A DNA stretch of 64,000 bases from Alphaproteobacteria bacterium (GTDB taxonomy: Bacteria > Pseudomonadota > Alphaproteobacteria > TMED109), in the NCBI GenBank assembly GCA_965115815.1, contig OZ220465.1:2798222-2862221 (forward strand), read 5' to 3'. Positions 4,198-63,646 of the stretch are shown in pieces. The position numbers and the translations under genes are program-made. The notes under the pieces are model-generated. The model worked only from the letters and a program-made list of their open reading frames with translations, had not been told where the DNA came from and searched no databases. Each line of letters begins with the position of its first letter. The stretch's first letter is position 1.

Positions 4198-5102
4198 CCG
4201 AGCCTCCGCACCTCGACTGGGACCGACTGCGGATCTTTCGCATCGTCGCGGACGCGGGGTCGTTCACACGGGCAGGCGAAACCCTCCGCCTGTCGCAGGG
4301 CGCGATCAGCCGCCAGATCCGTTCGCTGGAACGAAGCTTGGACGTCACGCTGTTCCAGCGGCACGCCCGCGGTCTCGTCCTGACCGAACAGGGCAAGATC
4401 CTCCGGCAAACGTCCCGTGACGTGTTCGACCGCATCTCCCGCATGGAGGCGCAGCTGGACCATAACCGCGAACGGCCGCGCGGCCCGCTCCGCGTGACCA
4501 CCACGGTCGGGTTCGGCTCCGTCTGGCTGCCCTCGCAGATCAACGAGTTCCTCGACCGGTATCCGGAAATCCACCTGTCGCTGCTGATCGGCGATTCGGA
4601 GGTGGACGTCCATCTTCTCAAGGCCGATGTCGCCATCCGGATGGCGCCGCCCCGGCAACCCAGCCTGATCCAGCGCCACCTCTTCACCGGCCACATCGCC
4701 CTCTATGCCGCGCCGTCGTATCTCCGCCAGTTCGGTACGCCGCAGACCCTCGAAGACCTTCTCGAGCACCGGATCGTCACCTATGGGGACCAGACCTCGA
4801 TGCCGTTTCCCGGGGTGAACTGGCTGGGGGAATCCCTCCGCAGACTGGACCCCCGCTTCGAACCGGCAGTCACCCTCAACAACCTCGTCGGCATGGTCCG
4901 TTCGGTGGAATGGGGTGCTGGCATCGCCGCCCTGCCCACCCTGCTGGTCCACCAAATGGGCCGATGCGAGCACATCATGCGCGACATCGAGGGGCCGTTG
5001 ATCGAAGCCTACTTCGTCTATCCCGAAGTGCTCCGGAACACGCTCCGGGTGAACGTGTTCCGGGACTTCCTGCTGGAGAAGATCCGAGAGGTGCGGCTCT
5101 GA
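4194..5102 (+). CDS. LysR-family transcriptional regulator
   Basis: N-terminal HTH LRIFRIVADAGSFTRAGETLRLSQGAISRQIRSLE plus a LysR substrate-binding body. The GTG start overlaps the trxB stop (GTGA). Confidence 0.9.
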   Translation: MTEPPHLDWDRLRIFRIVADAGSFTRAGETLRLSQGAISRQIRSLERSLDVTLFQRHARGLVLTEQGKILRQTSRDVFDRISRMEAQLDHNRERPRGPLRVTTTVGFGSVWLPSQINEFLDRYPEIHLSLLIGDSEVDVHLLKADVAIRMAPPRQPSLIQRHLFTGHIALYAAPSYLRQFGTPQTLEDLLEHRIVTYGDQTSMPFPGVNWLGESLRRLDPRFEPAVTLNNLVGMVRSVEWGAGIAALPTLLVHQMGRCEHIMRDIEGPLIEAYFVYPEVLRNTLRVNVFRDFLLEKIREVRL

Positions 5103-5144
5103 TCCCGGCCGGTCCGTTTCGTGCGGGCGCTGCCGGCCCGAACC

Positions 5145-8459: not shown

Positions 8460-8462
8460 TGA

Positions 8463-8645
8463 GAGCCTGTACGGAAACTATTGAGCGGTCCCGATTCTGG
8501 CCGCTCGTGCAAAGTATCGGCGTCGGAGAGACCGCTTCGAAAGCAATCTGACAGATGTGGAATGGGCTTGTCTGATCCCGATGTACTCTCCAGCCACATC
8601 GCAGATACCAGAATCGGGGCCGCTCAATAGTTTCCGCACAGGCTC
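8463..8645 (+). mobile_element. MITE-1 copy 1 (183 bp, ~38-bp terminal inverted repeats GAGCCTGTRCGGAAACTATTGAGCGG..)
   Basis: TIRs at both ends and no coding capacity. Five copies occur in the window. Flanking triplets are TGA (left) and TCA (right), so they are not a matching duplication. Confidence 0.8.
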
Positions 8646-8648
8646 TCA

Positions 8649-9195
8649 GATCGGCCGAAGGCGCCATCGCAGGTATCGATGTGGTGAGATGCCGGCGAGC
8701 TCCGCGGTGTCCGAGAACCCATGCACGTCCGTACGTCTTCGGTTGGGACCCTGGGAGATCTTCAAGCGGTCCCGCCGATCGTGGCGGGACCGTGTAGGGA
8801 AGGAGAAAACCGAAGCCTAGGACGAACGGCTGGAAGAAGTCGGATGGGGCCGTACGACCTGGGCTGGGAAGGCGACGAACCAGGGAGCGTCAGCTCCTGC
8901 GGAGTGGCGGGAGGAAAGGGCCCCAACCAAGGGGAATTCGGGACGCCAAAGCACGCGCCGAACGCAGGGTCGGGCACGCGTGCCTCAGGCGGCGGACCGG
9001 ATCCGGAAAGCCGCACGGTTCGACCGGAAGCGACGGGAGCGCAGGACCGAGATTTCTGGGTCGTGCGCAATCCTCCGCCGCCCAGGGCCGGATCCGCGGT
9101 TGGCCGTCAAGCACCCGAGGTAGGAGCCGGATGGATGAACGTCCAGGTCCGGATCGGTGCGGGGGGGGTGCGCAGTACTGCGCATTCCTACCGTA
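8649..9195 (+). mobile_element. ORF-less group II intron, 3' part (copy I-a), truncated at MITE-1
   Basis: Collinear with 10262-10796 of copy I-b. Domain-V-like hairpin GAGCCGGATGGATGAACGTCCAGGTCCGGATC at 9124-9155, DVI-like hairpin, 3' end ..CCTACCGTAC. Confidence 0.6.
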
Positions 9196-9204
9196 CCGTG
9201 TGCT

Positions 9205-10058
9205 AGGGCCTGTTAACGCATTATGTGGTGGAATATGTGATAGAATCCGGATCCCTGGTTCGTAGAGAGGATTCCCGGTCATGGAACTCACGCAAGCCCA
9301 GTACGAGCGTATCGCTCATGTCTTTCCGAAGCACCGCGGCAATGTCTTGCTCAGTAATCTGTCGGTTCTCAACGCGATTCTGTACGTGGCCGAGCAGGGA
9401 TGCAAGTGGCGCGGGCTGCCGGCGCACTTCGGCAACTGGCACACCATCTACACCCGGATGAACCGCTGGGCGAAGAAAGGCGTCCTGGATCGGGTGTTTG
9501 CGGAGTTGCAGCGCTTGGAGATCATGCGGGTGAAGGTCGAGGTGCTATCCTTGGACAGCACCGTGGTGAAGGTGCACCCGGACGGCACGGGAGCGCTCGA
9601 AACGCACGGTCCTCAGGCCATCGGGAAGTCGCGCGGGGGCTGGACCACCAAGCTTCATCGGGTAGCTGCGAATGATCGAAACGCGGTAGGGTTTTCCTTG
9701 TCCGGAGGACAGGAGGGGGACGGGCCCCAGGGACGCACGTTGCTGCACCGCATGGCATTACCGGATACTGCACGTTGTTTGGTGATGGACAAGGCCTAGG
9801 AAGGGGACGAAACCCGTGCGTGGGTTGCAGGCCGGGGACGGGAGCCCGTGGTCCCACCGAAGGCCAACCGGATCACACCGTGGGAATACGACCGAGAATT
9901 GTACAAGAAACGCAATGAAGTCGAGCGCCTGTTTCGGAGGATCAAGCGATTTCGGCGTGTCTTCACGAGATTCGACAAGCTTGATATTGTCTTCACCTTC
10001 TTCATCCACTTCGCGCTCATCGTCGATGCCCTCAAGCCTCTATAGCGTTAACAGGCCC
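9205..10058 (+). mobile_element. IS5-family (IS427 group) element, copy 1
   Basis: Terminal repeats GGGCCTGTTAACGC../..GCGTTAACAGGCCC, inserted in a CTAG site (TA duplicated). Confidence 0.9.
9281..10045 (+). pseudogene. IS5/IS427-group DDE transposase, single in-frame TAG (9797-9799)
   Basis: ORFs 9281..9799 and 9848..10045 are in the same frame. ..NAILYVAEQGCKWRGLP..MDKA*EGDE..FRRIKRFRRVFTRFDKLD. Copy 2 has TAT (Tyr) at the TAG position. Confidence 0.9.
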
Positions 10059-10797
10059 TAGGCGAACGGGCAGAAGACAGGGGGTGAAAGTCCCCTGGAA
10101 CGAAGGAGGAACCAAACCGCGTTTCTCCGCGAGCCGTGCGTCGGTTCCCGTGAGGGGGCAGGCGAAGCGTCGGCAGCGGTGCGGATGGGTGGGGCTCGGA
10201 TGGGTGGGGCTAAGGAGCACCGAAAAGACGAGGATCCGGGGTGCCGAGGTGTTCCGATCGGCCGAAGGCACCATCGCAGGCATCGATGTGGTGAGATGCC
10301 GGCGAGCTCCGCGGTGTCCGAGAACCCATGCACGTCCGTACGTCTTCTGTCGGGACCCTGGGAGATCTTCAAGCGGTCCCGCCGATCGTGGCGGGACCGT
10401 GTAGGGAAGGAGAAAACCGAAGCCTAGGACAAACGGCTGGAAGAAGTCGGATGGGGCCGTACGACCTGGGAAGGCGACGAACCAGGGAGCGTCAGCTCCT
10501 GCGGAGTGGCGGGAGGAAAGGGCCCCAACCAAGGGGAATTCGGGACGCCAAAGCACGCGCCGAACGCAGTGTCGGGCACGCGTGCCTCAGGCGGCGGACC
10601 GGATCCGGAAAGCCGCAAGGTTCGACCGGAAGCGACGGGAGCGCAGGACCGAGATTTCTGGGTCGCGCGCCACCCTCCGCCGCCCATGGCCGAATCCGCG
10701 GTTTGCCGTCAAGCACCCGAGGTAGGAGCCGGATGGATGAACGTCCATGTCCGGATCTGTGCGGGGGTGCGCAGTACTGCGCATTCCTACCGTAACT

Positions 10798-10814
10798 GGG
10801 GGGGGGGGGGGGGG
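10798..10814 (+). repeat. 17-nt poly-G tract
   Basis: Read directly. It follows the 3' end of intron copy I-b by one T and precedes the hairpin AGGGGCTCGGCAACGACCCCTCC. Confidence 0.9.
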
Positions 10815-11390
10815 AGGGGCTCGGCAACGACCCCTCCTACCCGGCGGATCTCGTCCATTCGCCGGCAGAGGTCTCCCCCACAGCTCCGGATTGATCGGAA
10901 CGTCGGCGCCGAGATGGAGCCGCGTTCGCTGCCGCACCCGGTCGCCCCGGCGCACCGATTCCCCCCGCCGGCCGGGGGTGTAGGAGCGACCCTTGCGGCC
11001 ACCGGTTCGGGTCCGTCGAAGGAACCTGCACCCAACCGAATGCTGATTCAGATGGCTGCAAGGGGCCTCCAAAAAATGGCACTACTTTGGAGGCCCCGAC
11101 AGAATGACCCTTGTTTTTCAAGGGTTTCCCGTCCTGCGGCGATCGGGCCGCGACGATTGCCGGACAGATCCCCGTCGCCGCCTTCGATCCGTACCCTGCC
11201 GCCCTTGCCGCCTCCGACGCGATTGGACCCGACTGCCCCTCCCCAAGATTCCGACCTGCGATGTCCAGCGATCCTCCCCGGTGGCACGGATCGCCAGCCG
11301 ACGGAACCTGTCTCGCCGGTGCAGTTATCGGCACCGCGTGGCACACTTCCCCGGGAGAGACATAGTCGGGCGACCTTGAGCATCCTCCGA

Positions 11391-11915
11391 TTACTCGTTC
11401 GCTTTGGCGACAAGCTCCTCAAGGTAGATCACGTAGTCATCCTCTGCGAAGGGTAGGTGGCACTCCATGCAGGGTCGGGTGTCGACATCCGCCTTGAGGG
11501 TTCCGTCACCGGAGAAGAAGCCGTATTCCCAGTCGCCGTTCCGAATGTCCTCCGGGTAGATCTCGCCCCATCCGGGCTGCTTCTCCATCACCGCTAGGAC
11601 CTTGAGGTTGGCCTTCTGCATACGCCCGTCCGCATCGTAGACCGGCTCTCCGTCGTCATCGACGACAGCTGCGTACACCTCCATCACGAACTGCGAACCG
11701 TGGTCCAGCGGAGCACCGTCCTTGGCACTCTCGACCGCGGCGAGGTTGGCGTAGAGGTCGCGCACTGTCATGTTGTCCGGACGGTCGGACGTCATGAAAT
11801 AGACGAATTCGGACTTGTAGTCCTGTGGAAAGGTGATCCGCTCGGCTCCGGCCAGAACCAGACCGGGGATGCCGAGGGCGGCCGCGAGGGCGATCGCGAA
11901 ACCGGTTGTTCGCAT
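11391..11915 (-). CDS. cytochrome P460-family protein
   Basis: ATG 11915 with GGAGG upstream. Signal peptide MRTTGFAIALAAALGIPGLVLA. ~175 aa with a C-terminal haem motif CMECH. TAA stop. Confidence 0.8.
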   Translation of the reverse strand: MRTTGFAIALAAALGIPGLVLAGAERITFPQDYKSEFVYFMTSDRPDNMTVRDLYANLAAVESAKDGAPLDHGSQFVMEVYAAVVDDDGEPVYDADGRMQKANLKVLAVMEKQPGWGEIYPEDIRNGDWEYGFFSGDGTLKADVDTRPCMECHLPFAEDDYVIYLEELVAKANE

Positions 11916-11962
11916 AGTGAATGCTCCTCCCTTGCTGCCCTGCGGTCGCAGGGCATGCGCGA

Positions 11963-12997
11963 TCATACATGATCGCCGTCGGCGTTTCGGAGAGGCGGGC
12001 CGAGGATGATGTCGGCCTCCGGCTGAAACGCATGGAACACGAACGCGAAGGTGACGTGGTGGGGAACGTCCTCCGGCGGATCGTCCTTCGTCTGTACGGT
12101 GATGTTTCCGACGTCCCGTCCCGTTGCCACCGTGCCGGTGTTGAGGGCGGAAGCTTGGCCCGGTTCCCAGCTGATGACGAAATCGCCCGCATCCACGGTC
12201 CGGTTGGCGCGCAGGTATCCGAAGCTCCAAGCTCGATCCCCGATGGCCACCACGCGTTCAAGCGGGGCAATCCCCTCCGGCAGTTCGCCGTCATAGAGAA
12301 ACGGAACAGACCGGGTGTCGTAGCCGACGTACGGGTTGAGGCCGTACCGTCTCAATTGGGGATCATTCGGAATCAGAACCTGTCCGTCCGGGTGCCGTTT
12401 GCGGAACCGTTCCCACGAGGTCAGCCGTGACGGCAGCAGGGTGAGGGCTTGGCCGGTGAGGGCGCCGACAATGGCCTCGCCGGTGTACTGCTGCCACCAG
12501 CTTTCGGTTTGTCGGTCGTACATTACCAAGTCGGAGTTTCGAAGATTGCCCGTGGTACCGAAGTCGAGAACCTGATCTCCGAGGCGGCGGTCGAACACGA
12601 GGGCAGCGTTGCACAGTGGGCAGTAGGTCACCGCAACCGGGATTCCTCCTACCGTGTCGTTGACGATTTCGTGCCACATCAGGATGCGGAGCGGGTAGGC
12701 CCGTGCGTCCCCGTCAATGTTGATGCCGATGACCGGCTCCATGCGCGCCAGATCGACTGCTGCCGACAGGGGGATGAACGCCGGGTTGTCGATGGACGGA
12801 ATGCCGTCCCGAGGGGGCCCGCCGGACCGAATGGAACGAAGGTCGATGGCATGGCTGGAGAAGTCGGTTTCCGGCCAAGCGTATTTCCACCGCTCCGGGT
12901 CGGCGGCCGCCGAACTGGCAATCAGCAGCGCAAGAGCGGCGGCCGGGAGGCTTGGCCTGCCGGGGCGCAACGGGCGGATTCTCGTTCCATGTGACAT
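11963..12997 (-). CDS. DUF3179 domain-containing protein
   Basis: GIPSIDNPAF, YPLRILMWHEIVNDTVGGIPVAVTYCPLCNAALVFDR and FGTTGNLRNSDLVMYDRQTESWWQQ are hallmark DUF3179 motifs. Signal peptide present. Confidence 0.85.
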   Translation of the reverse strand: MSHGTRIRPLRPGRPSLPAAALALLIASSAAADPERWKYAWPETDFSSHAIDLRSIRSGGPPRDGIPSIDNPAFIPLSAAVDLARMEPVIGINIDGDARAYPLRILMWHEIVNDTVGGIPVAVTYCPLCNAALVFDRRLGDQVLDFGTTGNLRNSDLVMYDRQTESWWQQYTGEAIVGALTGQALTLLPSRLTSWERFRKRHPDGQVLIPNDPQLRRYGLNPYVGYDTRSVPFLYDGELPEGIAPLERVVAIGDRAWSFGYLRANRTVDAGDFVISWEPGQASALNTGTVATGRDVGNITVQTKDDPPEDVPHHVTFAFVFHAFQPEADIILGPPLRNADGDHV

Positions 12998-13126
12998 GAG
13001 GTATGGGTCTCGGGGCGGGATTTCGGAGGCAGGGAGGGCTAGTGAACTAGGGCGGCTGGAAATCTCCGGGAATCTGTCGTAGAATAGGGATTGTGGATGG
13101 TGCGCAACCCCTTAGGGACGGAAGCG

Positions 13127-13732
13127 ATGCTCGGGCCTGACGTCAATATTGGTCGTCGTCGGCTGATTCGGGACGGGGCGGCGTTGCTCTGCGGCTCGGC
13201 GCTCTCGCTGGTTCCGGCAGCAGCCCGGTCTCGGGAACCCTGTGCGAACGGCAGGGAGCGGAAGACGGCGATGCAGACCACGGGACCCTTTCATCGGTCC
13301 GGGGCTCCGTTCCGCGAGGATCTGCGCAGGGACGGGCCGAACGGCCACGATCTCACCGTGCGCGGCCGGGTGATCGACGTTGCCTGCCGGCCCGTGGAGG
13401 GTGCCGTCCTTGATATCTGGCAAGCGGATCCGGACGGGGTCTACGACATGGAGGGGTTCGGGTTCCGGGGCCGGATTCGCACCGATGCCGAAGGTAGGTA
13501 CATGTTCGTGACACTGAAACCGGGTTCCTACGGATCCGGGTTTGTGCGAACGCCGCACATCCATGTCTGGATTCAGGCGGTTGGTTTCCGGCCGCTCACG
13601 ACACAGATCTACTTCCCCGAGGAAAACCTGAATGCTCAGGATGCACTGTACCGCCCGGACCTGACCATGAGCGTGTCCAAGGGATATGCGGGCCTGTCGG
13701 CGGTGTTCAGTTTCGTGCTGGAGCCGGATTGA
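13127..13732 (+). CDS. intradiol ring-cleavage dioxygenase-like protein (Tat-exported)
   Basis: Tat motif GRRRLIRDGAALL. ..VEGAVLDIWQADPDGVYD..GRIRTDAEGRYMFVTLKPGSY..RTPHIHVW.. is a dioxygenase C-terminal fold. Start could also be 13091. Confidence 0.8.
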   Translation: MLGPDVNIGRRRLIRDGAALLCGSALSLVPAAARSREPCANGRERKTAMQTTGPFHRSGAPFREDLRRDGPNGHDLTVRGRVIDVACRPVEGAVLDIWQADPDGVYDMEGFGFRGRIRTDAEGRYMFVTLKPGSYGSGFVRTPHIHVWIQAVGFRPLTTQIYFPEENLNAQDALYRPDLTMSVSKGYAGLSAVFSFVLEPD

Positions 13733-13917
13733 AGCCCGGAACACCTGAACCGACACCTCTGGACCGTTCCGGCCGGCATCGAATGGCAGGGAGCCGAGCT
13801 CTCCCGCCTGATTCGCCTGAACGTCCAAGGGTTGCGTGCGCAGCGGCAGGCAGGCCGGGCCCGGGATGTCGAGATTCGTCCGTGCCGTGGTCGCAGTGCG
13901 TTACGGGCCTGAGAGCC

Positions 13918-14104
13918 TAAGAGTTTGTTCCTAAAGTCGCGGATAACCCCAAAAATCTGCTTGGTGACGGCCGAAGTACCGTCACCAAGCAGATTTGGGC
14001 GGAGGTCGCGCTGCCTCGGAGCCATGATACCCTCCATCTGTGGGTCGTAGCTTGATGAAATACCATGGATTGGGGCCACCAGCGACTTTAGGAACAAACT
14101 CTTA
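13918..14104. mobile_element. MITE-3 (187 bp, 25-bp TIR TAAGAGTTTGTTCCTAAAGTCGC)
   Basis: Perfect TIRs. 6-bp direct repeat AGAGCC (13912-13917 / 14105-14110). Internal 18-bp perfect hairpin AAATCTGCTTGGTGACGG/CCGTCACCAAGCAGATTT. Only one copy in the window. Confidence 0.65.
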
Positions 14105-14191
14105 AGAGCCTGTGCGGAAACTATTGAGCGGCCCCGATTCTGGTATCTGCGACGTGGCTGGAGAGTACATCGGGATCAGACAAGCGGAACC

Positions 14192-15705
14192 TGTCAACGC
14201 CGTTGAGACAGCAAGGGTTGTCATGTACTGAGCATCTCCCACGGTAGGGGTGGCCTTCGGCGGGTGGATCCAGACCGTTTCGGGGAGCGCCCGCGGTTTC
14301 GGTTTCCCCTGGACGAACCGTTCCGGGTGCCGGCCCCAAGCTTGGCTCAAGGTGCGCCGGCGTTGCTCAATCCGCTGCCGGGCGCGGCCGTGGTGGACAT
14401 CGTCGGGGGGGGAGCATCGCGAGGTCCGCATGGTGATGCTCCGTGTGGTACCAGGGGAAGAAGGATCGACCGAAGTCGATGGCAGCGGGCAGATCCGGGA
14501 AGCGCCCGGGGCACCCGGGGTGGTACTTCAAGGTCTTGAACTGTGCCTCCGAGAAGGGGTGGTCGTCGCGGACCTTGGGGCGGCTGAGCGAGCGGATGAT
14601 ACCGAGCTGGGCGAGGAGTTGCGCGGTGCACGGGCGGGTCATGGGGGCGCCGCGGTCGGAGTGCAGGGTCCGCACCCGGGGCTGGATCCCTTGCTTGAGA
14701 CACGATTCCTCGATCAGCCGGCTGGCCAGTGCCGCGCTCTCGCGTTCGGCGACCCTCCATCCCACCACGTAGCAGCTGAAGAGATCAAGCAGCACATAGA
14801 GGTAGAAGGAAGACCCGGTCTTCGGCCCGAGCAGCCGTGTACTGTCCCAAGACCAGACTTGGTTCGGGGCGCGGGCGACGAGTTCGGGCTTGGCATAGCG
14901 TGGGTGGGTGAGCGGGTTGCGCCGTTCCCGCACCGGCTGCCGGGCGGAAAGGATGCGGTACCTCGTGCGCTCCGAGCACAGGTACCATCCTTCGTCGAGC
15001 AGCGCGGCCACGACCTCGGCCGGGGAACGATCGACGAAACGCGGGGAGGCGAGCCGGTCGAGGACCTGCTCCCGCTCCCCCTCGCTCCGGGCCCGGGCGG
15101 GCGTCGCACGGGGCTGCGGATGCCCGGGAACGGGCCTCCGGCGGCGGTAGAACGGGGCCCGGGACACCCCCAGCGCCCGACCGGCCGGCGCGATGCCGAC
15201 CTGCCGAGCGAGGGAAGTGGTGGCTATCCGCAGTCCTTCCCGTCGCGGAGGCTGAATCCCAGCAGCCCGGCAACGTTTCCCTGAACTTCGAGAATCGTAG
15301 GGGCCGTGGCCAGCTCCTTCTCCAGCCGCGCCACCTGGGCCTCGAGCCGGCGAACCTGGGCGCCGAGGGGGGTGGGACGGCGCCGGCTTGGGACCGCGCT
15401 TGCGTGGCGTCAGGCCCTGCAACGCTCCCCGGCGGCGGGCCCTTGCGCCACGTCGACAGATGCGAGCGGTACAGCCCCTCGCGACGCAGCAGGCGGCCGA
15501 TCTCGCCCGGCTCGCGACCGCGGTCCGCTTCCTCGACCATCCGCAGTCGATACTCGGCCGAGAACCGACGGCGGGTCGGCTTGGCGAGAACCTCCGGGTC
15601 CGGAGCGCGCCGAGTCGGCGGGGTCTCGGCCCTGGGGGGCGCGCCCCCAGGGCCGGCGTGGCGAGGGTACACCCCCCTGCCCACATTCGGGTCTGCCTTC
15701 ATCAT
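14192..15705 (-). pseudogene. IS3-family transposase orfA/orfB, multiple frame changes
   Basis: orfA MMKADPNV..RRRFSAEYRLRMVEEADRGREPGEIGRLLRREGLYRSHLSTWRK. orfB integrase core ..NQVWSWDSTRLLGPKTGSSFYLYVLLDLFSCYVVGW..LHSDRGAPMT. The reading shifts between three frames. Confidence 0.75.
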
Positions 15706-15731
15706 GGTTCCTCTCTGCCGCCCTCTAATTC

Positions 15732-15924
15732 GTGTCTGCACGGAAAATCACAACACATTGTATATGCAACCATATCTGGAATCTGGAGAACCGAAGATTC
15801 CTTCTTTGAGAGCATATGACGACATATTCCGCTGAAATCAGGCTGGATTCGATGAATCTTCGCCTTGTCAATATTGGGCTTTCATTCATGTAATCAGACT
15901 CTTAGGGATTTTCCGTGCAGACAC
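15732..15924. mobile_element. MITE-4 (193 bp, AT-rich, TIR GTGTCTGCACGGAAAATC)
   Basis: 18-bp TIRs flanked by a 6-bp duplication TAATTC (15726-15731 / 15925-15930). It sits between the IS3-1 end and orfA. Visibly much lower GC than its surroundings. Confidence 0.65.
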
Positions 15925-16079
15925 TAATTCCCAGGGTAGTCGGTGTCTCAGCGATGTTGGCAGAGAGGGAAGCCCATTCCACATCTGTCAGATTGCTTTC
16001 GAAGCGGTCTCTCCGACGCCGATACTTTGCACGAGCGGCCAGAATCGGGCCCGCTCAATAGTTTCCGTACAGGCTCTGA

Positions 16080-16263
16080 AAGCCTCGGCACCCCGGATCA
16101 TCGTCTTTTCGGTGCTCATTAGCCCCACCCATCCGCACCGCTGCCGACGCTTCGCCTGCCCCTCACGGGAACCGACGCACGGCTCGCGGAGAAACGCGGT
16201 TTGGTTCCTCCTTCGTTCTAGGGAACTTTCACCCCCTGTCTTCTGCCCGTTCGCCTGGCACAC
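16080..16263 (-). mobile_element. ORF-less group II intron, 5' part (copy I-c), truncated at MITE-1
   Basis: Reverse complement starts GTGTGCCAGGCGAACGGGCAGAAGACAGGGGGTGAAAG.. and is collinear with 9197-9204 + 10059-10250 of copy I-b. It breaks at the same intron position as copy I-a. Confidence 0.6.
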
Positions 16264-16317
16264 CAGATCCGGACGGGCCCGCATTCGGGCATCCGGTTCC
16301 GTACAGGACAGGTTCGC

Positions 16318-16639
16318 TCAAGCGGTCCCGTAGCCGTGCACGATCTTGGCCGCAGGCAGGGGCAAGCGGCGAAGCAGCGCGGCCATCGGGTCCCAGTTCA
16401 CCCGGGCCGAACGACTGCGCCGCGACCACCACGTTCGCCAGATTCGGATCACCTGATGGCGGAAGCTGGCAATTCGGGCACGGTTCCCGCTCCGGCCGTA
16501 GTAGGCGCAATGGCCTCGTAGGACCCGAGCGAGATCGTTGCGCGGGTAGAGCAAGGGCGCGTGTCGATGCCGTCGGCACCACTCCCGCACCGCTTGCAGC
16601 GCCCGTGCCAGGCACCCCTTGGCCGTGTGCTGGCGCAGC
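16318..16639 (-). pseudogene. group II intron IEP, C-terminal maturase (X) segment
   Basis: ..QHTAKGCLARALQAVREWCRRHRH..LRGHCAYYGRSGN..WRTWWSRRS..LPLPAAKIVHGY. Continues seamlessly from 19230 once IS A and one TSD copy are removed. Confidence 0.8.
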
Positions 16640-19221
16640 CTGCCCATTAGTCACAAAAGCTGTCATTACAAGTGAATTGAGGGGCGTGTTCCCGCGAACG
16701 CAGCGGCCCATTTCCGACACGCCCGGCGATCGTGCGGACCGAATGCTTGACAAGGCTCGCGCACCCTGGCAGGGTGTGCATCATCATGGACTACACTCCC
16801 CTGCCGATCCGGCCCACCTTGGATCAGCCCGAGGCCTTGGCCCGGCTGCAGCCGATCCTGGATCGCTCGTCGAGCCGCTGGGCGGCGACCCGCGCCACCT
16901 GTGCCGCGTTCGCGCTGCGCGATGGACGCGGACATCTGCGCCTGCAGAGCTGCCTGTCGGCACTGGAAGCCCTGGACCGGGCCGGGCGCATCCGGCTGCC
17001 GCCGGCGCGTCCGGGGCCGTCGCACTGGGCCCCGCGCACGGATCCCCGGACGCGGCCGGTGCCGCCGGTGCCGGAGGTTCCGGGCCAAGCGGGGCAGATC
17101 CCCGACCTTGCGGTGTCGCCGGTGACCGACCGCGCCGGCCAGCGCGGGTGGGGGGCGATGATGGCCCGGGAGCATCCTCTCGGGCCGGTGCGGGCGGCCG
17201 GCTCGCAGATCCGCTACTTCCTGACCTCGGGCGAGGGGATTCTCGGCGGCTTCCTGTGTGCGGCGCCGACCCGGGTGCAGGCGGCGCGCGATCGCTGGAT
17301 CGGCTGGACCCCGGCGCAGTGTGCGGCGGGGCGGCACCGGATCGTCGGCCTGGCGCGCTTCCTGATCCGGCCGGCTCTCGGGCGCTGCCGCAACCTCGCC
17401 TCCCGGGCGCTCGGTCTGTGCCTGCGCCGGGTGGTCGGGGACTACGAGGCTCTCTACGGTCTGCGTCCGGTGCTCATCGAAACGTATGTCGGTCCCGAGC
17501 ACGACGGTACCAGCTGCCGGGCGACCGGATGGATCCGGGTCGGGCAGACGGCCGGTCGCGACCGTCATCGCCGGCCGGTGCCGGCCAAGCAGGTCTGGAT
17601 GCGCCCGCTGTGTGCCGACTGGCGTCGGCACTTGGGGGCCCGGGTGGAGCCGCTGACGCCGTGGGCGGGTCTGGACAGTACCCGATGGGCCGAGCAGGAA
17701 CTGGCCGGAGCGGACTTCGGCGATGTCCGGCTGAGCCGGCGTCTCGTATCCTCGGCGGCCCGGCTGGCGCAGACACCCTCGAAGACCTTCGTGACCGCAG
17801 CCCGGGGAGAAGCAGCGATGGTGACCGGCTACTACCGTCTGATGGAACACCCCGATGCCGTCGCCGTCTCGGCGCAGGCGATCCTCGCCCCGCATCGCAA
17901 GCGGACCCGTCAGCGGATCCAGGGACAGAAAACGGTGCTGCTGATCCAGGACGGCTCCGACCTCAACCTGGCGACGCACCAAGCCTGCGACGGTCTCGGC
18001 GTGATCGCCCGCAACCGGGGCTCCCGGGGCACGCTCGGGCTGCACCTGCACACGACCCTCGCCGTCGCGGCGGACGGCATCCCGCTGGGGGTGCCGCGGA
18101 TCGAGTTCGATGCGCCGCCGCCCGAGGGCGCCGCCGCCGACGACCGTGACCCCAAGACCCGGCGCTGGGTCCGGGGGCTGGAAGACAGCGCCGCCCTGAT
18201 CGACGGATTGCACGAGGTTCGGGCCGTGGCCGTCATGGACCGCGAAGGCGATGCCTTCGAGGTCCTGGAGGCCTGGCGACGCCTGGAAGGGCGGATCCAC
18301 ATCCTCGTGCGGGCCCGCCACGACCGCAGTCTCGGCCCGGGACGGTTGAAGCTGTTCGAACGCATGCGCCGGCAGCCGGTCCGGGAGTCCGGGACGGTAT
18401 CGGTGCCGCGGTGGTCGGTACGGCGGGCGACGGGATCGCAGTCGGCCTTCCTCGGACGGGCCGCGCGCACCGCTCCCTACGCCCTGCGCTGGAAGAGCCT
18501 CGAGATCCCGGTTCCCGAAGGACGTGCCGAACCGGGCGCGCGGGCGATCCGCCTGTCGCTGGTCCAGGTCCGGGAAACCGCCGATCCCGAGGATGGAGCG
18601 AAGCCGCTGGAATGGCTGCTCCTGACCTCGCTGCCCGTGCGCGATGCCGGTCAGGCCCGGGAGGTGGTGGGCTTCTACGAGCGGCGCGGGCGCATCGAGG
18701 AGTTCTTCCGCATCCTCAAGTCCGGCTGCGATGGGGAGACGGGAGCCCATCGCACGCGGGAACGCGTCGAACGGGCCGTCGCCCTGCGCGCCGTCCTCGC
18801 CTGGAGACTGTCGGTCCTGGCCCTGCTCGGGCGCGAGACGCCGGGGCTCGAACCCGGGGTGCTGTTCTCCGAGGCCGAGCTGGCGGTGCTCGCGGACTTT
18901 GCCCGGCAGCGCCGCCTGCAGGCGCCCGACCACCTCGGCGCCGCCATCCTTCTCCTGGCCCGCATGGGCGGGTACCTCCAGCGCCGGCACGACGCACCGC
19001 CCGGAGCTCACGTGGTCTGGGAAGGATACGGCCATCTCGCACTCGGCGCCGACATCGTCGAGCGGGCCCGACAGGTCGGCCACCAGAGCGAAGTGAAACG
19101 CTGGATCTCGGGCTGAAAGCCCGGCCAAGGCGTATCGACCCACACCTTTCGCAGACTCACGGCACCTTCGATATGCAGGAACAGCGCCCTTGTCATGACA
19201 GGATTTGTGACTAATGAGCAG
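16640..19221 (+). mobile_element. IS4-family (Tn5-like) insertion sequence A
   Basis: IRs CTGCCCATTAGTCACAAAAGCTGTCAT / CTGCTCATTAGTCACAAATCCTGTCAT (reverse-complemented). 8-bp TSD GGCGCAGC (16632-16639 / 19222-19229). Confidence 0.9.
16786..19116 (+). CDS. DUF4338-domain + Tn5-like IS4-family DDE transposase (apparently intact)
   Basis: N-terminal ..RDRWIGW..RFLIRP..CRNLASRAL..PVLIETYVGPEHDGTSCRATGWIRVGQTAGR (DUF4338). Then a Tn5-type N-domain, LLIQDGSDL, AVMDREGD and the signature YERRGRIEEFFRILKSGC. Confidence 0.9.
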   Translation: MDYTPLPIRPTLDQPEALARLQPILDRSSSRWAATRATCAAFALRDGRGHLRLQSCLSALEALDRAGRIRLPPARPGPSHWAPRTDPRTRPVPPVPEVPGQAGQIPDLAVSPVTDRAGQRGWGAMMAREHPLGPVRAAGSQIRYFLTSGEGILGGFLCAAPTRVQAARDRWIGWTPAQCAAGRHRIVGLARFLIRPALGRCRNLASRALGLCLRRVVGDYEALYGLRPVLIETYVGPEHDGTSCRATGWIRVGQTAGRDRHRRPVPAKQVWMRPLCADWRRHLGARVEPLTPWAGLDSTRWAEQELAGADFGDVRLSRRLVSSAARLAQTPSKTFVTAARGEAAMVTGYYRLMEHPDAVAVSAQAILAPHRKRTRQRIQGQKTVLLIQDGSDLNLATHQACDGLGVIARNRGSRGTLGLHLHTTLAVAADGIPLGVPRIEFDAPPPEGAAADDRDPKTRRWVRGLEDSAALIDGLHEVRAVAVMDREGDAFEVLEAWRRLEGRIHILVRARHDRSLGPGRLKLFERMRRQPVRESGTVSVPRWSVRRATGSQSAFLGRAARTAPYALRWKSLEIPVPEGRAEPGARAIRLSLVQVRETADPEDGAKPLEWLLLTSLPVRDAGQAREVVGFYERRGRIEEFFRILKSGCDGETGAHRTRERVERAVALRAVLAWRLSVLALLGRETPGLEPGVLFSEAELAVLADFARQRRLQAPDHLGAAILLLARMGGYLQRRHDAPPGAHVVWEGYGHLALGADIVERARQVGHQSEVKRWISG

Positions 19222-19482
19222 GGCGCAGCACCGCATGCTTCCATCTCGACCGCACCCAAACATGGGTGAAGCCCAGGAAGTCGAAGGTGGCGCCCACTCC
19301 CGGATCCGGGGGCAGCTTGGCCCGAACGTCAACGGAACGTGTCTTCTCTGCGTGCAGCCTCAGCCCGAACCGGGCCAAGCGCTGGCCGAGGACGGCCAGC
19401 ACCCACTCGCAGTCCCGCTGATGCTCGAAGAGCAACGCGAAATCGTCCGCATACCGCACCCGTTGGCACCGGCCCCGGAGGC
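19222..19482 (-). pseudogene. group II intron IEP, RT palm/thumb segment
   Basis: ..GRCQRVRYADDFALLFEHQRDCEWVLAVLGQRLARFGLRLHAEKTRSVD..FDFLGFTHVW.. (YADD catalytic motif). Confidence 0.8.
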
Positions 19483-19534
19483 CTTTCATGCCGCCACACT
19501 TGACGTGCATCGGTCCGTCCGTCATGGTGACGGC

Positions 19535-22113
19535 ATGCAAGTCGGACTTCGACATCTCCGCGCCGACACGGTCGAGTGGCTGAAGGCGGCGGCGGCCGAG
19601 GACGGCCGGACGCGTCATGCGCTGGCGCGCGAGCTGTGCGAACGCGAGGACTGGCGCCACGCCCGGGGCCAGCCCTGCGTGTCCCAGGCGCGCGGGGTTC
19701 TGCCCGGGATCGCGAAGCGGGCGGGGTTCGTGCTGCCCGCGGCGCGGCCGGGTCCGTGCCGCACGCCGGGCCGTCCGGGCGGCGAGGTGGCGCGCACCGA
19801 CCCGGACCGGAAGCTGGCGTGCACGCTGGCGGATCTCGGGGAGGTCACCCTGGTCCCGGTGGGCGCGGCCCCGGACCGGCGCCGCTGGCGCGAGATGATG
19901 GAGACCCATCATCCGCAGGGTTGGAAGCACCGGCCGGGGAAGGTCCTCAACTTCTGGGTCGTGTCGTCGCGCCACGGCCGTCTCGGCGGCCTCGGGTATA
20001 CGGCCGCAGGCTGGCATCAGGCGGCTCGGGACGCGGCCATCGGCTGGTCGGCGACGGCGCGAGCCGCGAATCTGGTGCAGCTGGTCCAGCAGCACCGCTT
20101 TCTCCTGCTGCCCGGCGTCCGGGTCGCCCGGTTGGCCTCGCACGTGCTGGCCCGGTCGACGGCGCGCCTGGCCGCGGACTGGAAGGCGGCGCACGGGACC
20201 CGGCCGCAGGCGGTCTACACGTATGTGGGACCCGAGCACCGCGGCACCTGCTATCGTGCGGCCGGGTGGAGCCGCTGCGCCGAACCAACCTCGGACCGGC
20301 CGCCGGGAGGCCGTGCGACCGCGCCGAAGGCGGTGTGGATCCGGCCCTTGGCCGAGGGCTGGCGAGAGGTCCTGTCTCGGGAGCGGGGCGCCGTCCTCGG
20401 TACCACGTCGGAGCCGTGGCGGCCCGGGAACGCCGACTGGGCCGACATCGAGTACGGCCGCGGTTCGCATCCCGACGGCCGCGTGCGCACGCGGGTGCTG
20501 GCGATGGGCCGGGCTTGGGAGAACGCTCCGGGCGCGTCCCTGCCCGTGATCTTCCCGTCCGCCGCCGCGCAGAAGGCCGCGTACCGGCTGTTGTCCAGCG
20601 CCCGGGTCACGATGGAACACATCCTCGATCCCCACGCCGAAGCCACGGTCGAACGCTGCCGGCAGGAGCGGGTCATCCTCGCCCTGCAGGACACCACAAC
20701 GCGAATTACAACGGGCACTGCAAGACGAAAGGGCTGGTGAACCTTGGAGGCGGGGGCTCGGGCACCCGGGGAATCCTTGCCCATTTCACGCTGGCGGTGA
20801 CCGAGGGCCGCCGCCCGCTCGGCGTGATCGACCTCAACGCCACCCAGCGCGAGGGCACGGAAGCCCCGGACCGCGACGCCACCGAGCGCGAGGACACGGA
20901 AGCCCCGGACCGCGACGCCGCCGAGCGCGAGGGCACGGAAGCCCCGGACTGCGACGCCACCGAGCGCGAGGGCACGGCAGCCCCGGACTGCGACGCCACC
21001 GAGCGCGAGGGCACGGAAGCCCCGGACCGCGACGCCACCGAGCGCGAGGGCACGGAAGCCCCGGACTGCGACGCCACCGAGCGCGAGGGCACGGAAGCCC
21101 CGGACCGCGACGCCACCGAGCGCGAGGGCACGGAAGCCCCGGACTGCGACGCCACCGAGCGCGAGGGCACGGACCGCGACGCGGTCAAGCCGGAGAGTGT
21201 GCGCTGGCTTCAGGGACTCGAACGCGCCCGTCAGCTGGCCGCCGCCTGCCCCGACACCCGGGTGGTCACGGTCTGCGACCGCGAAGGCGACATCTGGGAA
21301 AGGTTCGTACAGGCGCGCGCCGGCGGCGTCGGGCTCCTCGTACGTTCCGACCGCGGCCGGCAGCGACGGGTGGTCCGCAGCGACGGCTCCGTGGCGGACC
21401 TGTGGGAGGCCATGGCGGAGCCGCCGGTTCTGGGAACGAAGACGGTCCACCTCGCCGCCTGCGGCGGACCCCGTCCGCGCCTCCAGCGCACCGTGATCCT
21501 CGAGCTCCGCGCCACCGCCGCCGTCTACCTCGTGCCGCCGAAAAACCGGGACGACCGGACGCCGATGCCCGTGCTCGCCGTCTCGGTCCGGGAAGCCCGA
21601 CCGCCCAAGGGCCGCGATCCGCTCCACTGGGTGCTGCTCTCCACCGAGGGCGAGGCCGACCTCCAGCACGCTCGACGCATCGTCGCCTGGTACGAGGCAC
21701 GCTGGACCCTCGAGGAGTACTTCCGGGTCCTCAAGGTCGGCGCCCGGATCGAAGAACGCAAGCTGCAGGACGCCGACGACCTGCGCACGTGCCTCGCTTT
21801 CGATGCCATCACCGCATGGCGGGTCATGGACCTCAAGCGCCTCGCGCGCGATCCGCCCGACCGCCCCGCCCTTGAGTTCTTCACCGACCGCGAAATCGGG
21901 GTTCTCTACCGATGGCTCCGGTACGATCGCATCCTCCGGGCCCCGCCTGGAAAGCCGCCCGACCTCCGCACCTTTGTGGTTGATCTCGCCCGCATGGCGG
22001 GCTTCCGGCCCAGCAAGCGTCAGCCGCTTCCGGGTACTGCGAAAATCTGGCAGGCGTGGCGGAAATTCAAGACCGGACTCGAATTCGTCCAATCAGAAGG
22101 GAACCGCACATGA
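19535..22113 (+). pseudogene. DUF4338 + Tn5-like transposase of IS B, frameshifted near 20700 and carrying a 39-bp repeat array
   Basis: Frame 1: ..RDAAIGW..RFLLLP..AVYTYVGPEHRGTCYRAAGW..ILALQDTTT. Frame 2 continues NYNGH..TVCDREGD..YEARWTLEEYFRVLKVG. Confidence 0.8.
20839..21180 (+). repeat. 39-bp tandem repeat, ~8.7 units, in frame in the IS B transposase
   Basis: Unit GCCACCGAGCGCGAGGGCACGGAAGCCCCGGAC(C/T)GCGAC encodes ATEREGTEAPD(R/C)D. The last unit is internally shortened. Confidence 0.95.
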
Positions 22114-22711
22114 GCCAGATTGCGTCAACAACGGGCTATTGAAAGGTCTCGGTCCGGGAAGCCCGACCGCCCAAGGGCCGCGATCCGCTCCACTGGGTGC
22201 TGCCCTCCACCGAGGGCGAGGCCGACCTCCCGCACGCTCGACGCATCGTCGCCTGGTACGAGGCACGCTGGACCCTCGAGGAGTACTTCCGGGTCCTCAA
22301 GGTCGGCGCCCGGATCGAAGAACGCAAGCTGCAGGACGCCGACGACCTGCGCACGTGCCTCGCTTTCGATGCCATCACCGCATGGCGGGTCATGGACCTC
22401 GAGCGCCTCGCGCGCGATCCGCCCGACCGCCCCGCCCTCGAGTTCTTCACCGATCGCGAAATCGGGGTTCTCTACCGATGGCTCCGGTACGATCGCATCC
22501 TCCGTGCCCCGCTTGGAAAGCCGCCCGACATCCGCACCTTTGGGGTCGATCTCGCCCGCATGGCGGGCTTCCGGCCCAGCAAGCGTCAGCCGCTTCCGGG
22601 TACTGCGAAAATCTGGCAGGCGTGGCGGAAATTCAAGACCGGACTCGAATTCGTCCAATCAGAAGGGAACCGCACATGAGCCAGATTGCGTCAACAACGG
22701 GCTATTGAAAG
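21580..22711 (+). repeat. 566-bp direct tandem duplication of the right end of IS B (21580-22145 and 22146-22711)
   Basis: The second unit starts immediately after the first right IR (..GGGCTATTGAAAG|GTCTCGGTCC..). A few SNPs separate the units. ORF 22197..22679 repeats the transposase C-terminus. Confidence 0.9.
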
Positions 22712-25474: not shown

Positions 25475-25656
25475 GCCCGCATCCAGTCCTTGTCCATCAG
25501 GGGGTGCACCGAGGGGAACACCCGGTCCGGGTACTTCCTCGCCTGCGCGGCGATCCACTGTGGTTTCGTTGACGTGTTGGCAGATCTCAGTGTCTCTTCC
25601 ACCGTTTCCCTCCAGGGGTTCGGTTCCTGCAGCACGCCCCTTCCCTCCAGCGGCAC
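25475..25656 (-). pseudogene. group II intron IEP, N-terminal segment
   Basis: GTG 25656. VPLEGRGVLQEPNPWRETVEE..YPDRVFPSVHPLMDKDWMR joins in frame to EAWRRTRKDG.. at 23346. Confidence 0.7.
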
Positions 25657-25704
25657 CCGGTGGACCCGGTTCCCCGCCTTCGACGGTACTAGGGCCTGTT
25701 AACT

Positions 25705-26469: not shown

Positions 26470-26507
26470 GACCGGGAATCCTCTCTACGAACCAAGGATC
26501 CGGATTC

Positions 26508-57244: not shown

Positions 57245-59158
<1,914 letters not shown>

Positions 59159-63588: not shown

Positions 63589-63646
63589 CCGCTTTCAGGC
63601 TGTGTCAGCTCGCGAGAGGGCAGAGACACCCAAGCGAATACTCTCA

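Follow-up and report, generated by a model that had tools for sequence, protein, structure and literature searches.

Two internally deleted, ORF-less group II introns of one lineage (type A) lie head to tail in the DV/DVI linker of an RT-encoding group II intron of a different lineage (type B) in the window, the 64,000-nucleotide stretch of alphaproteobacterial DNA analysed here. Because the same arrangement recurs in a related metagenome contig, one intron lineage appears to have homed into the other by sequence guidance. The whole account, in which type A homed into the type-B DV/DVI linker, a second insertion took place at the same 5′ exon and the array was later broken up, is in our judgement probably correct.

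Identity and boundaries of the inner introns

The ~745-nt ORF-less elements are group II introns, as originally predicted. A search with the Rfam group II models yielded matches to RF02005 (group-II-D1D4-6) in copy 2 (10087–10326, plus strand; 136 bits, E 1e-38) and in the 5′ part of copy 1 (16007–16229, minus strand; 78 bits, E 5e-20), as well as matches to RF00029 (DV/DVI) in copy 2 (10724–10796; 37.8 bits) and copy 1 (9122–9196; 35.3 bits), the latter two scoring just below the gathering score of 40, with intact relatives at 39–45 bits. Compensatory changes occur in 12 of 28 DV/DVI pairs across type-A members, and type A is best explained as an IIB-like group II intron lineage that lacks an endonuclease (En) domain. 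All features named in the original prediction were recovered, none displaced by more than 1–2 nt. The type-A features are:

16077–16263, minus strand: copy 1, 5′ part, from GTGTGCC to GAGGCTT-TCA in the EBS1 loop
8649–9197, plus strand: copy 1, 3′ part, from the EBS1 loop to the 3′ end CCTACCGTACC
9124–9155, plus strand: copy 1 DV
9198–10796, plus strand: copy 2
10254–10259, plus strand: copy 2 EBS1, CCGAUC
10726–10757, plus strand: copy 2 DV
10761–10796, plus strand: copy 2 DVI with branch A and 3′ end

Copy 2 measures 744 nt after removal of an IS5-like insertion and runs from GTGTGC to CCTACCGTAAC. The two parts of copy 1 had been counted as separate copies, but they are halves of one: joining 16077–16263 (minus strand) to 8649–9197 gives a single intron of ~736 nt with EBS1 CAGAUC, in which TCA stands on either side of a MITE, and the uninterrupted target TTTCAGATC is present in copy A of the related contig L025, to which the 3′ part of copy 1 is orthologous. 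Copy 1 was thus split by the MITE, and its halves would then have been separated by an inversion. The 3′ part shares 97% identity with copy 2. Since every family member ends 7 nt past the branch A and the equivalent L025 junction reads GTAAC/GTGTGCC, copy 1 ends at 9197 (GTACC, with an A-to-C substitution), so that the copies abut exactly instead of being separated by the 1-nt gap previously assumed. The DV bulge is mutated in both window copies (AU and AG versus AC in the family), and no activity can be inferred for them.

The type-B host and its decay

The host is a type-B intron (Bradyrhizobium japonicum-like, 5′ UUGCG, DV AAC). Copy 1 begins at 16263 (minus strand), 2 nt past a DV hairpin (16299 to 16266) that follows the TGA (16320–16318) of an ORF with a GIIM domain. 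Joining 16264 (minus strand) to 10797 (plus strand) restores the contiguous order of stop codon, DV, UGU linker and DVI seen in the relatives L001, L002, L014 and L017, which confirms that, as predicted, the inner introns are nested in sense orientation within the DV/DVI linker of an intron encoding an RT. The segment 10797–10840 had also been recognised as the missing host DVI; this identity holds, as the sequence matches the DVI and 3′ end of four RT-intron relatives column by column in an alignment, but its end lies at 10845. It consists of T, G17 and AGGGGCTCGGCAACGACCCCTCCTACCCGGC, with the hairpin GGGGCUCGGCAACGACCCC, a branch A in CCUACCC and a 3′ end in GGC; the G17 run compares with G6 and G8 in L025 and in a second contig, L026. 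L002 has the same 19-nt hairpin core, and the hairpin is 100% identical in L025 (936–972) and L026 (2293–2331). The joined host IEP ORF has 470 homologues, the closest being 81% identical. The features of the host and of the mobile elements that broke up the array are:

16264–16299, minus strand: host DV GAACCGGAUGCCCGAAUGCGGGCCCGUCCGGAUC and first two linker nucleotides, UG (alignment to four type-B relatives)
10797–10845, plus strand: third linker nucleotide, U, then host DVI (same alignment)
16318–16639, minus strand: C-terminal maturase (X) domain of the host IEP, with its stop codon (Pfam GIIM, E 9e-5; joined ORF)
19222–19480, minus strand: host IEP RT motifs 5–7, RYADDF..FDFLGFTH (RVT_1; tblastn 93% to P0042)
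22713–23332, minus strand: N-terminal part of the host IEP (RT0–4), a pseudogene with in-frame stop and frameshift (tblastn)
25534–25693, minus strand: host D2–D4a fragment (blastn, 95% to nt 424–583 of the L025 type-B intron and 71% to the B. japonicum intron)
8460–8648, plus strand: ~190-nt MITE adjoining the 3′ part of copy 1 (repeat comparison, termini and flanks)
14105–16076, minus strand: the same MITE adjoining the 5′ part of copy 1 (16076 to 15970 and 14185 to 14105; repeat comparison; rve, E 3e-18)
9206–10058, plus strand: IS5-family IS within copy 2 at nt 8/9, TA duplication (Pfam DUF4096, E 3e-21)
16640–19221, plus strand: IS4/Tn5-like IS in the host IEP, 8-bp duplication GCTGCGCC (ends and duplication)
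19481–22712, plus strand: second IS-type insertion in the host IEP, ends approximate (repeats, tblastn)
23333–25476, no strand assigned: third IS in the host, DruA/DDE type (96% identical to L025 2856–4999; repeats)

The IS5-family IS has terminal inverted repeats GGGCCTGTTAACGC and a second copy, as an inverted repeat, at 25689–26507 (94%). The IS4/Tn5-like transposase carries a DruA-like domain at its N-terminus together with the Pfam domains Tnp_DNA_bind, DDE_Tnp_1 and Dimer_Tnp_Tn5, and the second host insertion holds nine 39-nt tandem repeats and a 566-nt internal duplication. An rve-domain element of the IS3 family and another small MITE interrupt the MITE at 14105–16076; positions 14–1797 of L026 are 96% identical to 15969 to 14185 of the window. 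The MITE at 8460–8648 would be the recombinant partner of that at 15970–16076 and 14105–14185. Host D1 was found nowhere in the window, in which no Rfam D1 match falls to it; the host copy also contains an in-frame stop, a frameshift and three IS insertions and is dead. All elements in the window are fossils, as their IS and MITE insertions and mutated DV bulges indicate.

Proposed history and recurrence in related contigs

The type-A DNA target would comprise the 3′ strand of the type-B DV and the first two linker nucleotides (..GUCCGGAUCUG/U). A deleted type-A intron (D1–D4a, DV and DVI, without RT) may have reverse-spliced into this site through pairing of its EBS1 (CCGAUC or CAGAUC) with GAUCUG, with DNA copying by an RT acting in trans, most likely from an ORF-bearing type-A intron. 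Another deleted copy would then have inserted at the same 5′ exon, directly upstream of the first, to give the exact head-to-tail pair, a plausible step given how little an En-less intron requires apart from the 5′ exon. Later, the upstream copy received a MITE in its EBS1 loop and the downstream copy an IS5-like element at nt 8, and three IS elements entered the host; an inversion between two inverted MITEs would then have placed the 3′ two thirds of the array at 8649–10845 (plus strand). Type-A introns also carry GUCCGGAUCUG/UG in their own DV/DVI linker, yet no self-nested type-A copy was seen, which the homing model leaves unexplained.

In L025, the host DV and GG precede a deleted type-A copy and an abutting second copy. 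The same contig contains a type-A intron that still has an ORF (286 aa open; RVT_1, 64 bits) and ends directly before T, G6 and a type-B DVI; in L026, a type-A 3′ end is followed by T, G8, a type-B DVI and then a different 3′ exon, and in L013 a type-A 5′ end directly follows ..GUACGGAUCUG. Derived changes are shared between the upstream copies and between the downstream copies of the window locus and L025 type-B copy #2, so these two look orthologous and truly independent events are fewer than loci. L026 and L025 copy #1 could represent movement of a composite twintron instead of fresh homing. That the recurrence as a whole reflects spread of such a composite (outer B with unspliced inner A) or segmental duplication is possible but rather unlikely: it would fit the identical host DVI hairpins, near-identical inner 3′ ends and different 3′ exons of L026 and the window, as well as the clear descent of the window and L025 copy #2 from one ancestral locus, but L025 copy #1 holds another type-A variant as its inner intron, one with an ORF and 86% identity to copy 2, the DV 3′ strand differs in L013 (GUACGG versus GUCCGG), and EBS1 variants match exon variants.

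Origin of the tandem pair

Homing of two introns 1 nt apart, as first proposed, survives in that two insertions are the simplest reading; neighbouring sites do not, given the exact head-to-tail junction. Because EBS1 has no pairing partner in CCGUACC, the sequence flanking the downstream copy on its 5′ side, the same 5′ exon hit twice fits better. We consider it doubtful that there was a single inner insertion and that the pair arose by later DNA-level duplication (unequal recombination or slippage), followed by ~3% divergence. In both the window and L025 the junction is exactly 3′ end to 5′ end, with no base gained or lost; the flanks CTG/GTGTG and GTAAC/TGGGG lack common microhomology, and the two copies have different EBS1 variants. 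The L025 type-B introns abut exactly too (..CCCGGC/TTGCGCC), which suggests a recurrent intron-driven process. Such a duplication would nevertheless accord with the high identity of the copies, with the presence of the pair in both the window and L025, which makes it old, and with the fact that the copies are not separately datable (13 versus 8 derived changes).

Parentage of the deleted introns and the putative helper

Aligned to the Sinorhizobium meliloti pSymA intron, copy 2 keeps D1–D4a and then jumps to the last 17 IEP codons (TLRRPWPNPRFAVKHPR and stop), the IEP having been deleted. The type-A remnant ends in RPWPNPRFAVKHPR and a stop, its TAG lying within GGUAGGAGCC; the host IEP ends in KIVHGYGTA, and the two IEP types are 42% identical. 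The inner introns are internal-deletion derivatives of type A (S. meliloti-like), a lineage different from that of the host. They had been described as parasites of the intron that presumably supplies their IEP in trans, a view that finds no support in these codons and the upstream RNA, which belong to the other IEP lineage. The host IEP probably did not serve as helper; an ORF-bearing type-A intron is the likelier, putative type of helper, because type-A codons and RNA were retained and such an intron occupies the same niche in L025. Accordingly weighed, mobilisation in trans by the type-B IEP, making the ORF-less introns parasites of their own landing pad, appears unlikely, even though one Rfam D1 family matches both lineages, type-B IEP genes are multi-copy in a related 4.57-Mb genome and both intron types are constantly associated physically. 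The low IEP identity, the type-A character of the retained D4a and the L025 niche all speak against it, and trans-mobilisation in Thermosynechococcus elongatus was tested among closely related introns and IEPs, all from that one genome (PMC2882425). Counting against a type-A helper, no autonomous type-A intron is present in the window, and the ORF-bearing one in L025, a putative helper, has a DV mutation (GGAAC for GGAUC).

Target recognition

EBS1 is the loop of a GCCGA-stem-loop-stem-GAAGGC hairpin and pairs with the last 5–7 exon nucleotides in type A (L019–L024 and L010) and type B (L014, L016, L017 and L001); loop and exon sequences vary from case to case and covary across more than 10 sites. 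In the window, the 3′ strand of the host DV, GAUCUG, is IBS1 for the inner introns, forming 6/6 pairs with CAGAUC of reconstructed copy 1 and 5/6 with CCGAUC of copy 2; the L025 exon reads GAUCGG, and there too EBS1 is CAGAUC in one copy and CCGAUC in the other. A candidate EBS2 loop is present in the family; that only 4 bp with host sequence are possible at the canonical EBS2 position counts against our explanation. Judged from these sequences, targeting appears to depend on EBS1–IBS1 pairing and not on a hairpin, and the hairpins upstream in the window are merely DV and DVI. An upstream hairpin, as for class C introns, had been taken as the only shared site feature, but recognition of a hairpin with insertion 1–3 nt after it and little sequence specificity is largely refuted and highly improbable: DV, DVI and the L010 site are indeed stable hairpins ending 1–2 nt before the insertion point, but 7 of the 11 type-A sites lack a stable hairpin directly upstream, L013 has the same 8-nt exon CGGAUCUG without a comparable hairpin, EBS1–IBS1 pairing covaries with the exon, a candidate EBS2 exists, and the DV triad is AGC here, whereas IIC introns typically have CGC.

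Comparison with known systems

Autonomous type-A relatives comprise the S. meliloti pSymA ltrA intron (L018) and introns in Rhizobium, Burkholderia, Cupriavidus, Acidithiobacillus and Aminobacter plasmids (L019–L024). They share with the window copies the Rfam D1 family, 5′ GUGCGCC.GG, the EBS1 hairpin, DV GAGCC..GGAUC, the UGU linker and DVI ..CCCUACCGCGAA, and their IEPs end in HPWPxxRFAVxHPR with the stop codon within the 5′ flank of DV; they differ in their full RT/maturase ORF and diverse cognate exons, and none of those examined lies inside another intron. Host relatives are the B. japonicum intron in IS66 (L014), L016, L017, L001 and L002, which likewise have 5′ UUGCG, DV GAAC.., the UGU linker and DVI GAGGGGCGGGG..CCUACUCGGC, and encode an En-less IEP with 53–69% identity. 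Their DV and DVI are contiguous, whereas the linker is occupied only in the window, L025 and L026.

Bacterial twintrons are already known, and the window arrangement is a variant of them, not a novel element type. In Euglena chloroplast twintrons, as the work of Copertino and Hallick is cited in PMC4424553, the inner intron likewise breaks a catalytic 3′ domain of the outer one, so that its removal is needed first for the outer intron to fold; those introns are organellar, highly degenerate and located in essential genes, with sequential splicing proven, whereas the window introns are bacterial, intergenic and decayed, and any past splicing of them is putative. Nested group II introns of Methanosarcina acetivorans (Dai and Zimmerly 2003), as reported in PMC4424553 and PMC2882425, use homing sites in related intron ORFs and form nested arrays, unlike the DV/DVI linker site and the tandem, non-nested extra copy found here. 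In T. elongatus, ORF-less TeI3 introns lie within IEP-encoding TeI4 introns (Mohr et al. 2010, PMC2882425); like those in the window, they are group II introns of bacteria that became ORF-less through deletion of the ORF, and this proliferation strategy has been described explicitly. There, however, the inner intron targets DIV at a point between the first and second ATG of the IEP ORF, the IEP of the outer intron mobilises the inner one and occupancy is single. The window site instead belongs to the ribozyme core (3′ strand of DV and DV/DVI linker) and holds two introns, head to tail, of a lineage whose IEP is 42% identical to that of the outer intron's lineage.

Identity of the inner introns

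The ~745-nt elements had been predicted to be group II introns, and Rfam covariance models bear this out. They occupy the following parts of the window:

16263 to 16077, minus strand: I-c, 5' part of copy 1
8649 to 9197, plus strand: I-a, 3' part of copy 1
9198 to 10796, plus strand: copy 2 (I-b)

After removal of an IS5-like element (9206-10058, TA duplication, DUF4096 transposase), copy 2 measures 744 nt and reads GTGTGC...CCTACCGTAAC; identity to copy 2 is 97% for I-a, over the 3' two thirds, and ~98% for I-c, over the first 180 nt. RF02005 (group-II-D1D4-6, gathering score 49) matches D1 of copy 2 at 10087-10326(+) with 136 bits (E 1e-38) and the 5' part of copy 1 at 16007-16229(-) with 78 bits, the latter score being lower because a MITE breaks up D1 there. 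RF00029 matches DV/DVI at 10724-10796 (37.8 bits) and 9122-9196 (35.3 bits), both slightly below its gathering score of 40; undamaged members of the same families score 39-45 bits. Compensatory changes are found in 12 of the 28 DV/DVI pairs among nine members of type A, the S. meliloti-like lineage of the inner introns. The domains conform to a DV of ~34 nt with an AGC triad and a 2-nt bulge and a DVI whose bulged branch A stands 7-8 nt before the 3' end, this distance being 7 nt in all type-A members. In the window copies, the G of the triad is opposite A instead of U, and AU or AG stands at the DV bulge where the type-A family has AC. The bulge substitutions differ between the two copies (9148-9149, AG; 10750-10751, AU), and AC is read in L010, L005, L006 and L007 (four comparison loci). 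As for the group II termini (5' GUGYG, 3' AY), both copies open with GUGUG and end in AAC (copy 2) or ACC (copy 1), the latter a substitution, since the orthologue in L025, a related contig, has AAC. A minimum-free-energy fold of the whole intron gave no information for assigning domains, and the introns are described here only as IIB-like and En-less.

Origin of copy 1 and of the tandem

The original prediction counted I-c and I-a as separate copies, which turn out to be parts of one. The end of I-c and the start of I-a fall within a single D1 hairpin loop, a MITE family of ~190 nt adjoins both, in consistent orientation and with its opposite ends, the joined sequence has TCA on either side of the MITE, and the orthologous L025 copy contains the intact target GAGGTTTTCAGATCGG. 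A single intron, copy 1, of ~736 nt, thus took a MITE and was split later, most simply by an inferred inversion between its MITE and a further one in inverted orientation; the second MITE copy (14105-16076) is in turn broken by an IS3-family insertion and a different MITE. The MITE itself is ~190 nt long with terminal inverted repeats of ~40 nt and at least five copies in 64 kb (8460-8648, 46931-47119, 62376-62564, 63644-63832, and 15970-16076 plus 14105-14185), and T(C/G)A borders every intact copy. The window as a whole is a dense nest of IS elements and MITEs inserted into one another.

The equivalent junction in L025 reads CCTACCGTAAC|GTGTGCC. Given this junction and the 7-nt branch-A distance of all type-A members, the C at 9197 is the last base of copy 1, whose 3' end GTACC reflects an A-to-C change; the 1-nt gap proposed between I-a and I-b thus shrinks to 0 nt, and copies 1 and 2 adjoin without a spacer. 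The sequence immediately 5' of the downstream copy, CCGUACC, is unable to pair with EBS1. The best account of the tandem is that a second copy inserted at the 5' exon already used by the first, on its upstream side. Private substitutions yielded no order for copies 1 and 2.

Parentage of the ORF-less introns

The alignment of copy 2 with the autonomous S. meliloti pSymA intron (L018; RF02005 137 bits, IEP C-terminus ..HPWPSVRFAVSHPR before the stop) starts at the 5' end, breaks off shortly before the conserved beginning of the IEP (the intron-encoded RT/maturase) and resumes at the last 17 IEP codons, TLRRPWPNPRFAVKHPR, and their stop. The remnant stop codon lies within GGUAGGAGCC, at the foot of DV. 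Frame 1 of copy 2 consists of the upstream region and these last 17 codons only, and former ATG sites read ACA and ACG; the RT/maturase ORF is thus absent and remnants of an ORF-bearing parent persist. The ORF-less element thus derives cleanly from the type-A lineage by internal deletion. In the S. meliloti intron (2237-2450 of L018, pSymA ltrA), the annotated 492-aa IEP begins ~70 codons before the conserved start (FTALFHH), and this 'N-terminal extension' overlaps D2-D4a RNA that the ORF-less intron keeps; the start has probably been annotated too far upstream, unless this stretch has a dual use.

As regards a helper, the IEPs of type A and of type B, the B. japonicum-like lineage of the host intron, are 42% identical. 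No type-A IEP-encoding intron was found within the 64-kb window, and one is present in L025.

The host intron and the insertion point

The IEP of the host intron survives in pieces parted by IS elements, one of them Tn5-like with an 8-bp duplication:

23332 to 22713, minus strand: N-terminal and RT0-4 pseudogene
19480 to 19222, minus strand: RT5-7
16639 to 16318, minus strand: X domain

Beyond the host stop codon come DV (16299 to 16266), UG and copy 1, and copy 2 is followed by T, G17 and AGGGGCTCGGCAACGACCCCTCCTACCCGGC. When 16320 to 16264(-) was joined to the sequence from 10797 onward (+) and aligned with two metagenome introns, one B. japonicum intron and one R. leguminosarum intron, the joined sequence was colinear with all four over stop, DV, UGU and DVI to the 3' end, the sole anomaly being a G run 11 nt too long. 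The inner block therefore lies in sense orientation between nucleotides 2 and 3 of the DV/DVI linker, the original prediction having placed it in this linker, and the third linker nucleotide at 10797 is followed by the missing host DVI. The outer intron is thus restored precisely once the inner introns are taken out, which is the arrangement of a twintron, and with the inversion undone, all inner and outer parts lie on one strand. A host D2-D4a fragment remains at 25534-25693(-); host D1 was looked for in the window and not found.

The ends of type-B introns (5' UUGCG, 3' ..CCUACUCGGC) were set by comparison of an occupied IS66 site with an empty one. The host DV reads GAAC.. instead of GAGC.., and its IEP ends ..KIVHGYGTA before the stop. 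Non-canonical termini and core are seen across the lineage (L014, the B. japonicum intron in IS66, at 819-2832; L016, L017 and L001; window 16266-16299(-)), with AAC opposite A or G at the triad position, as against AGC with a G-U pair, and a 3' end ..GGC. One IIB intron with a 5'-UUGCG boundary has been reported (PMC7923331).

Several further features were observed. The G run in the 5' strand of DVI is G17 in the window (10798-10814), G6 in L025 (937-942) and G8 in the related contig L026 (2294-2301), where relatives read GAGGGGC; this tract beside the 3' junction of the inner intron is hypervariable and looks slippage-prone. A DruA-like domain (Pfam PF14236, Druantia protein; E 8e-14, 1e-18) stands at the N-terminus of IS4/Tn5-like transposases (window 16732-19116(+) and L025 3084-4880(-), also window 23333-25476), fused there to Tnp_DNA_bind, DDE and Tn5-dimerisation domains. 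A 39-nt repeat occurs nine times at 20752-21219, within the second IS of the host IEP, and a 9-nt tandem array of more than 48 GCCGTCCGC-like copies occupies window positions 58121-58700.

Target recognition

In both lineages, a hairpin of consensus GCCGA-stem-loop-stem-GAAGGC (intron nt ~183 in type A, ~216 in type B) presents a loop complementary to the final 5-7 nt of the 5' exon, adjoining the splice site. The loop position was set by covariation in 11 relatives, and loop and exon sequences are unrelated between cases; the loop is EBS1.

EBS1 loops and paired 5' exon ends (loop / exon)
UAAUU / AAUUA
CUCAUC / GGUGAG
UCAGAAC / GUUCUGA
UAUACA / UGUAUA
CGACA / UGUCG
UCGCAAG / UUUGCGA
CGGAGA / UUUCCG
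GUUGG / CCAAC
UAUAA / UUAUA

The exon in the window, GAUCUG, is made up of the last bases of host DV and the UG that follows; it pairs with CCGAUC of copy 2 at 5/6 positions and CAGAUC of reconstructed copy 1 at 6/6. The L025 exon, GAUCGG, pairs with CCGAUC of the downstream copy at 6/6 and CAGAUC of the upstream copy at 5/6. An internal loop, the candidate EBS2, pairs farther upstream in 4/6 autonomous relatives and in L010; in the window, it forms 4 bp only.

Group IIC introns are recognised by a site set mainly by a terminator or attC stem-loop, an IBS1 of 3-4 nt and the absence of EBS2, and targeting through an upstream hairpin, as in class C, had been proposed for the window. When the 40-nt 5' flanks of 11 sites were folded, seven showed no stable hairpin immediately upstream. 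The hairpin is thus not a family feature, and the class-C analogy fails; the EBS1 pairings of 5-7 bp and the candidate EBS2 likewise depart from the IIC pattern.

Two other candidate pairings were discarded. A 9-bp match between CGGAUGGGU (copy 2 nt 130-138) and host GCCCGUCCG lies off the covariation-defined EBS2 position and is considered fortuitous, with ~0.7 such matches expected by chance. An EBS1 in the 17-nt loop of GGGACC-CUGGGAGAUCUUCAAGC-GGUCCC gave pairings that were never next to the splice site, and the true EBS1 hairpin was found later.

Recurrence in other loci

A search with a spurious ORF in the intron as query retrieved L025 and L026, contigs of ENA sample ERZ24894574. In L025, the host X-domain end and DV are followed by GG, by one deleted type-A copy and, directly adjoining it, by a second; the first has derived characters in common with window copy 1 and the second with window copy 2, so the tandem is ancestral to window and L025 alike. 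Elsewhere, L025 has a type-A intron with an open 286-aa RT/X frame (RVT_1 64 bits), whose 3' end adjoins T, G6 and a type-B DVI, which in turn adjoins another type-B intron at the latter's 5' UUGCGCC. The two type-B introns there (936-1010) adjoin head to tail without a gap (..CCTACCCGGC|TTGCGCCAGG), and the downstream member is an internal-deletion derivative (RT4 to C-terminus), so tandem stacking is not limited to ORF-less type-A introns. In L026, a type-A 3' end is followed by T, G8 and a type-B DVI, then by a different 3' exon, and in the metagenome fragment L013, a type-A 5' end follows ..GUACGGAUCUG.

Another deletion derivative, in a sponge-symbiont MAG (L010), occupies its own cognate site. 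This 666-nt type-A derivative (4457-5125(-), Poriferihabitaceae) has lost D2-D3 and most of the IEP and keeps part of the X domain (..GWLNYF..); it lies 1 nt past a 7-bp hairpin that follows a gene, and its EBS1 matches IBS1 perfectly over 6 bp. A scan of genome contigs returned distant relatives only, a metagenome scan one useful locus (L013) and one chance match (L012), and two scans of viral sequences no matches.

Implications and comparison with known systems

All elements in the window are fossils: each inner copy is broken by an insertion (an IS in one, a MITE in the other) and has an altered DV bulge, and the host carries three IS insertions, one stop codon and one frameshift. It is quite possible, if somewhat short of likely, that the type-A lineage uses type-B core DNA (the DV 3' strand and DV/DVI linker) as a dedicated homing site, an intron-on-intron hyperparasitism in which autonomous and RT-less members alike land there, an occupied site stays targetable and gives rise to head-to-tail stacks, and each insertion parts DV from DVI. 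Host splicing would then require prior removal of the guests, because the insertion separates DV from DVI. The head-to-tail stacking in both lineages indicates that an occupied site is still a target for En-less introns. The natural variants of EBS1 (CAGAUC, CCGAUC) and of the exon (GAUCUG, GAUCGG) are directly usable for mobility assays.

Bacteria seldom contain ORF-less group II introns or twintrons (PMC4424553), and those that they contain are the closest bacterial models of intron multiplication and of reliance on shared trans-acting factors. The view of what group II introns are is unchanged, and all copies seen are decayed. What the case adds, as testable points, is a homing site in the ribozyme core of another intron, not in its ORF, and exact head-to-tail stacking at one site, in both lineages. 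T. elongatus is an established case both of ORF-less introns mobilised in trans and of introns that home into other introns (PMC2882425), and the latter is also known from M. acetivorans, as summarised in PMC4424553. In contrast to both systems, the introns here target the ribozyme core at its DV/DVI linker, the guest is of another lineage than the host, and the stacking is exactly head to tail.
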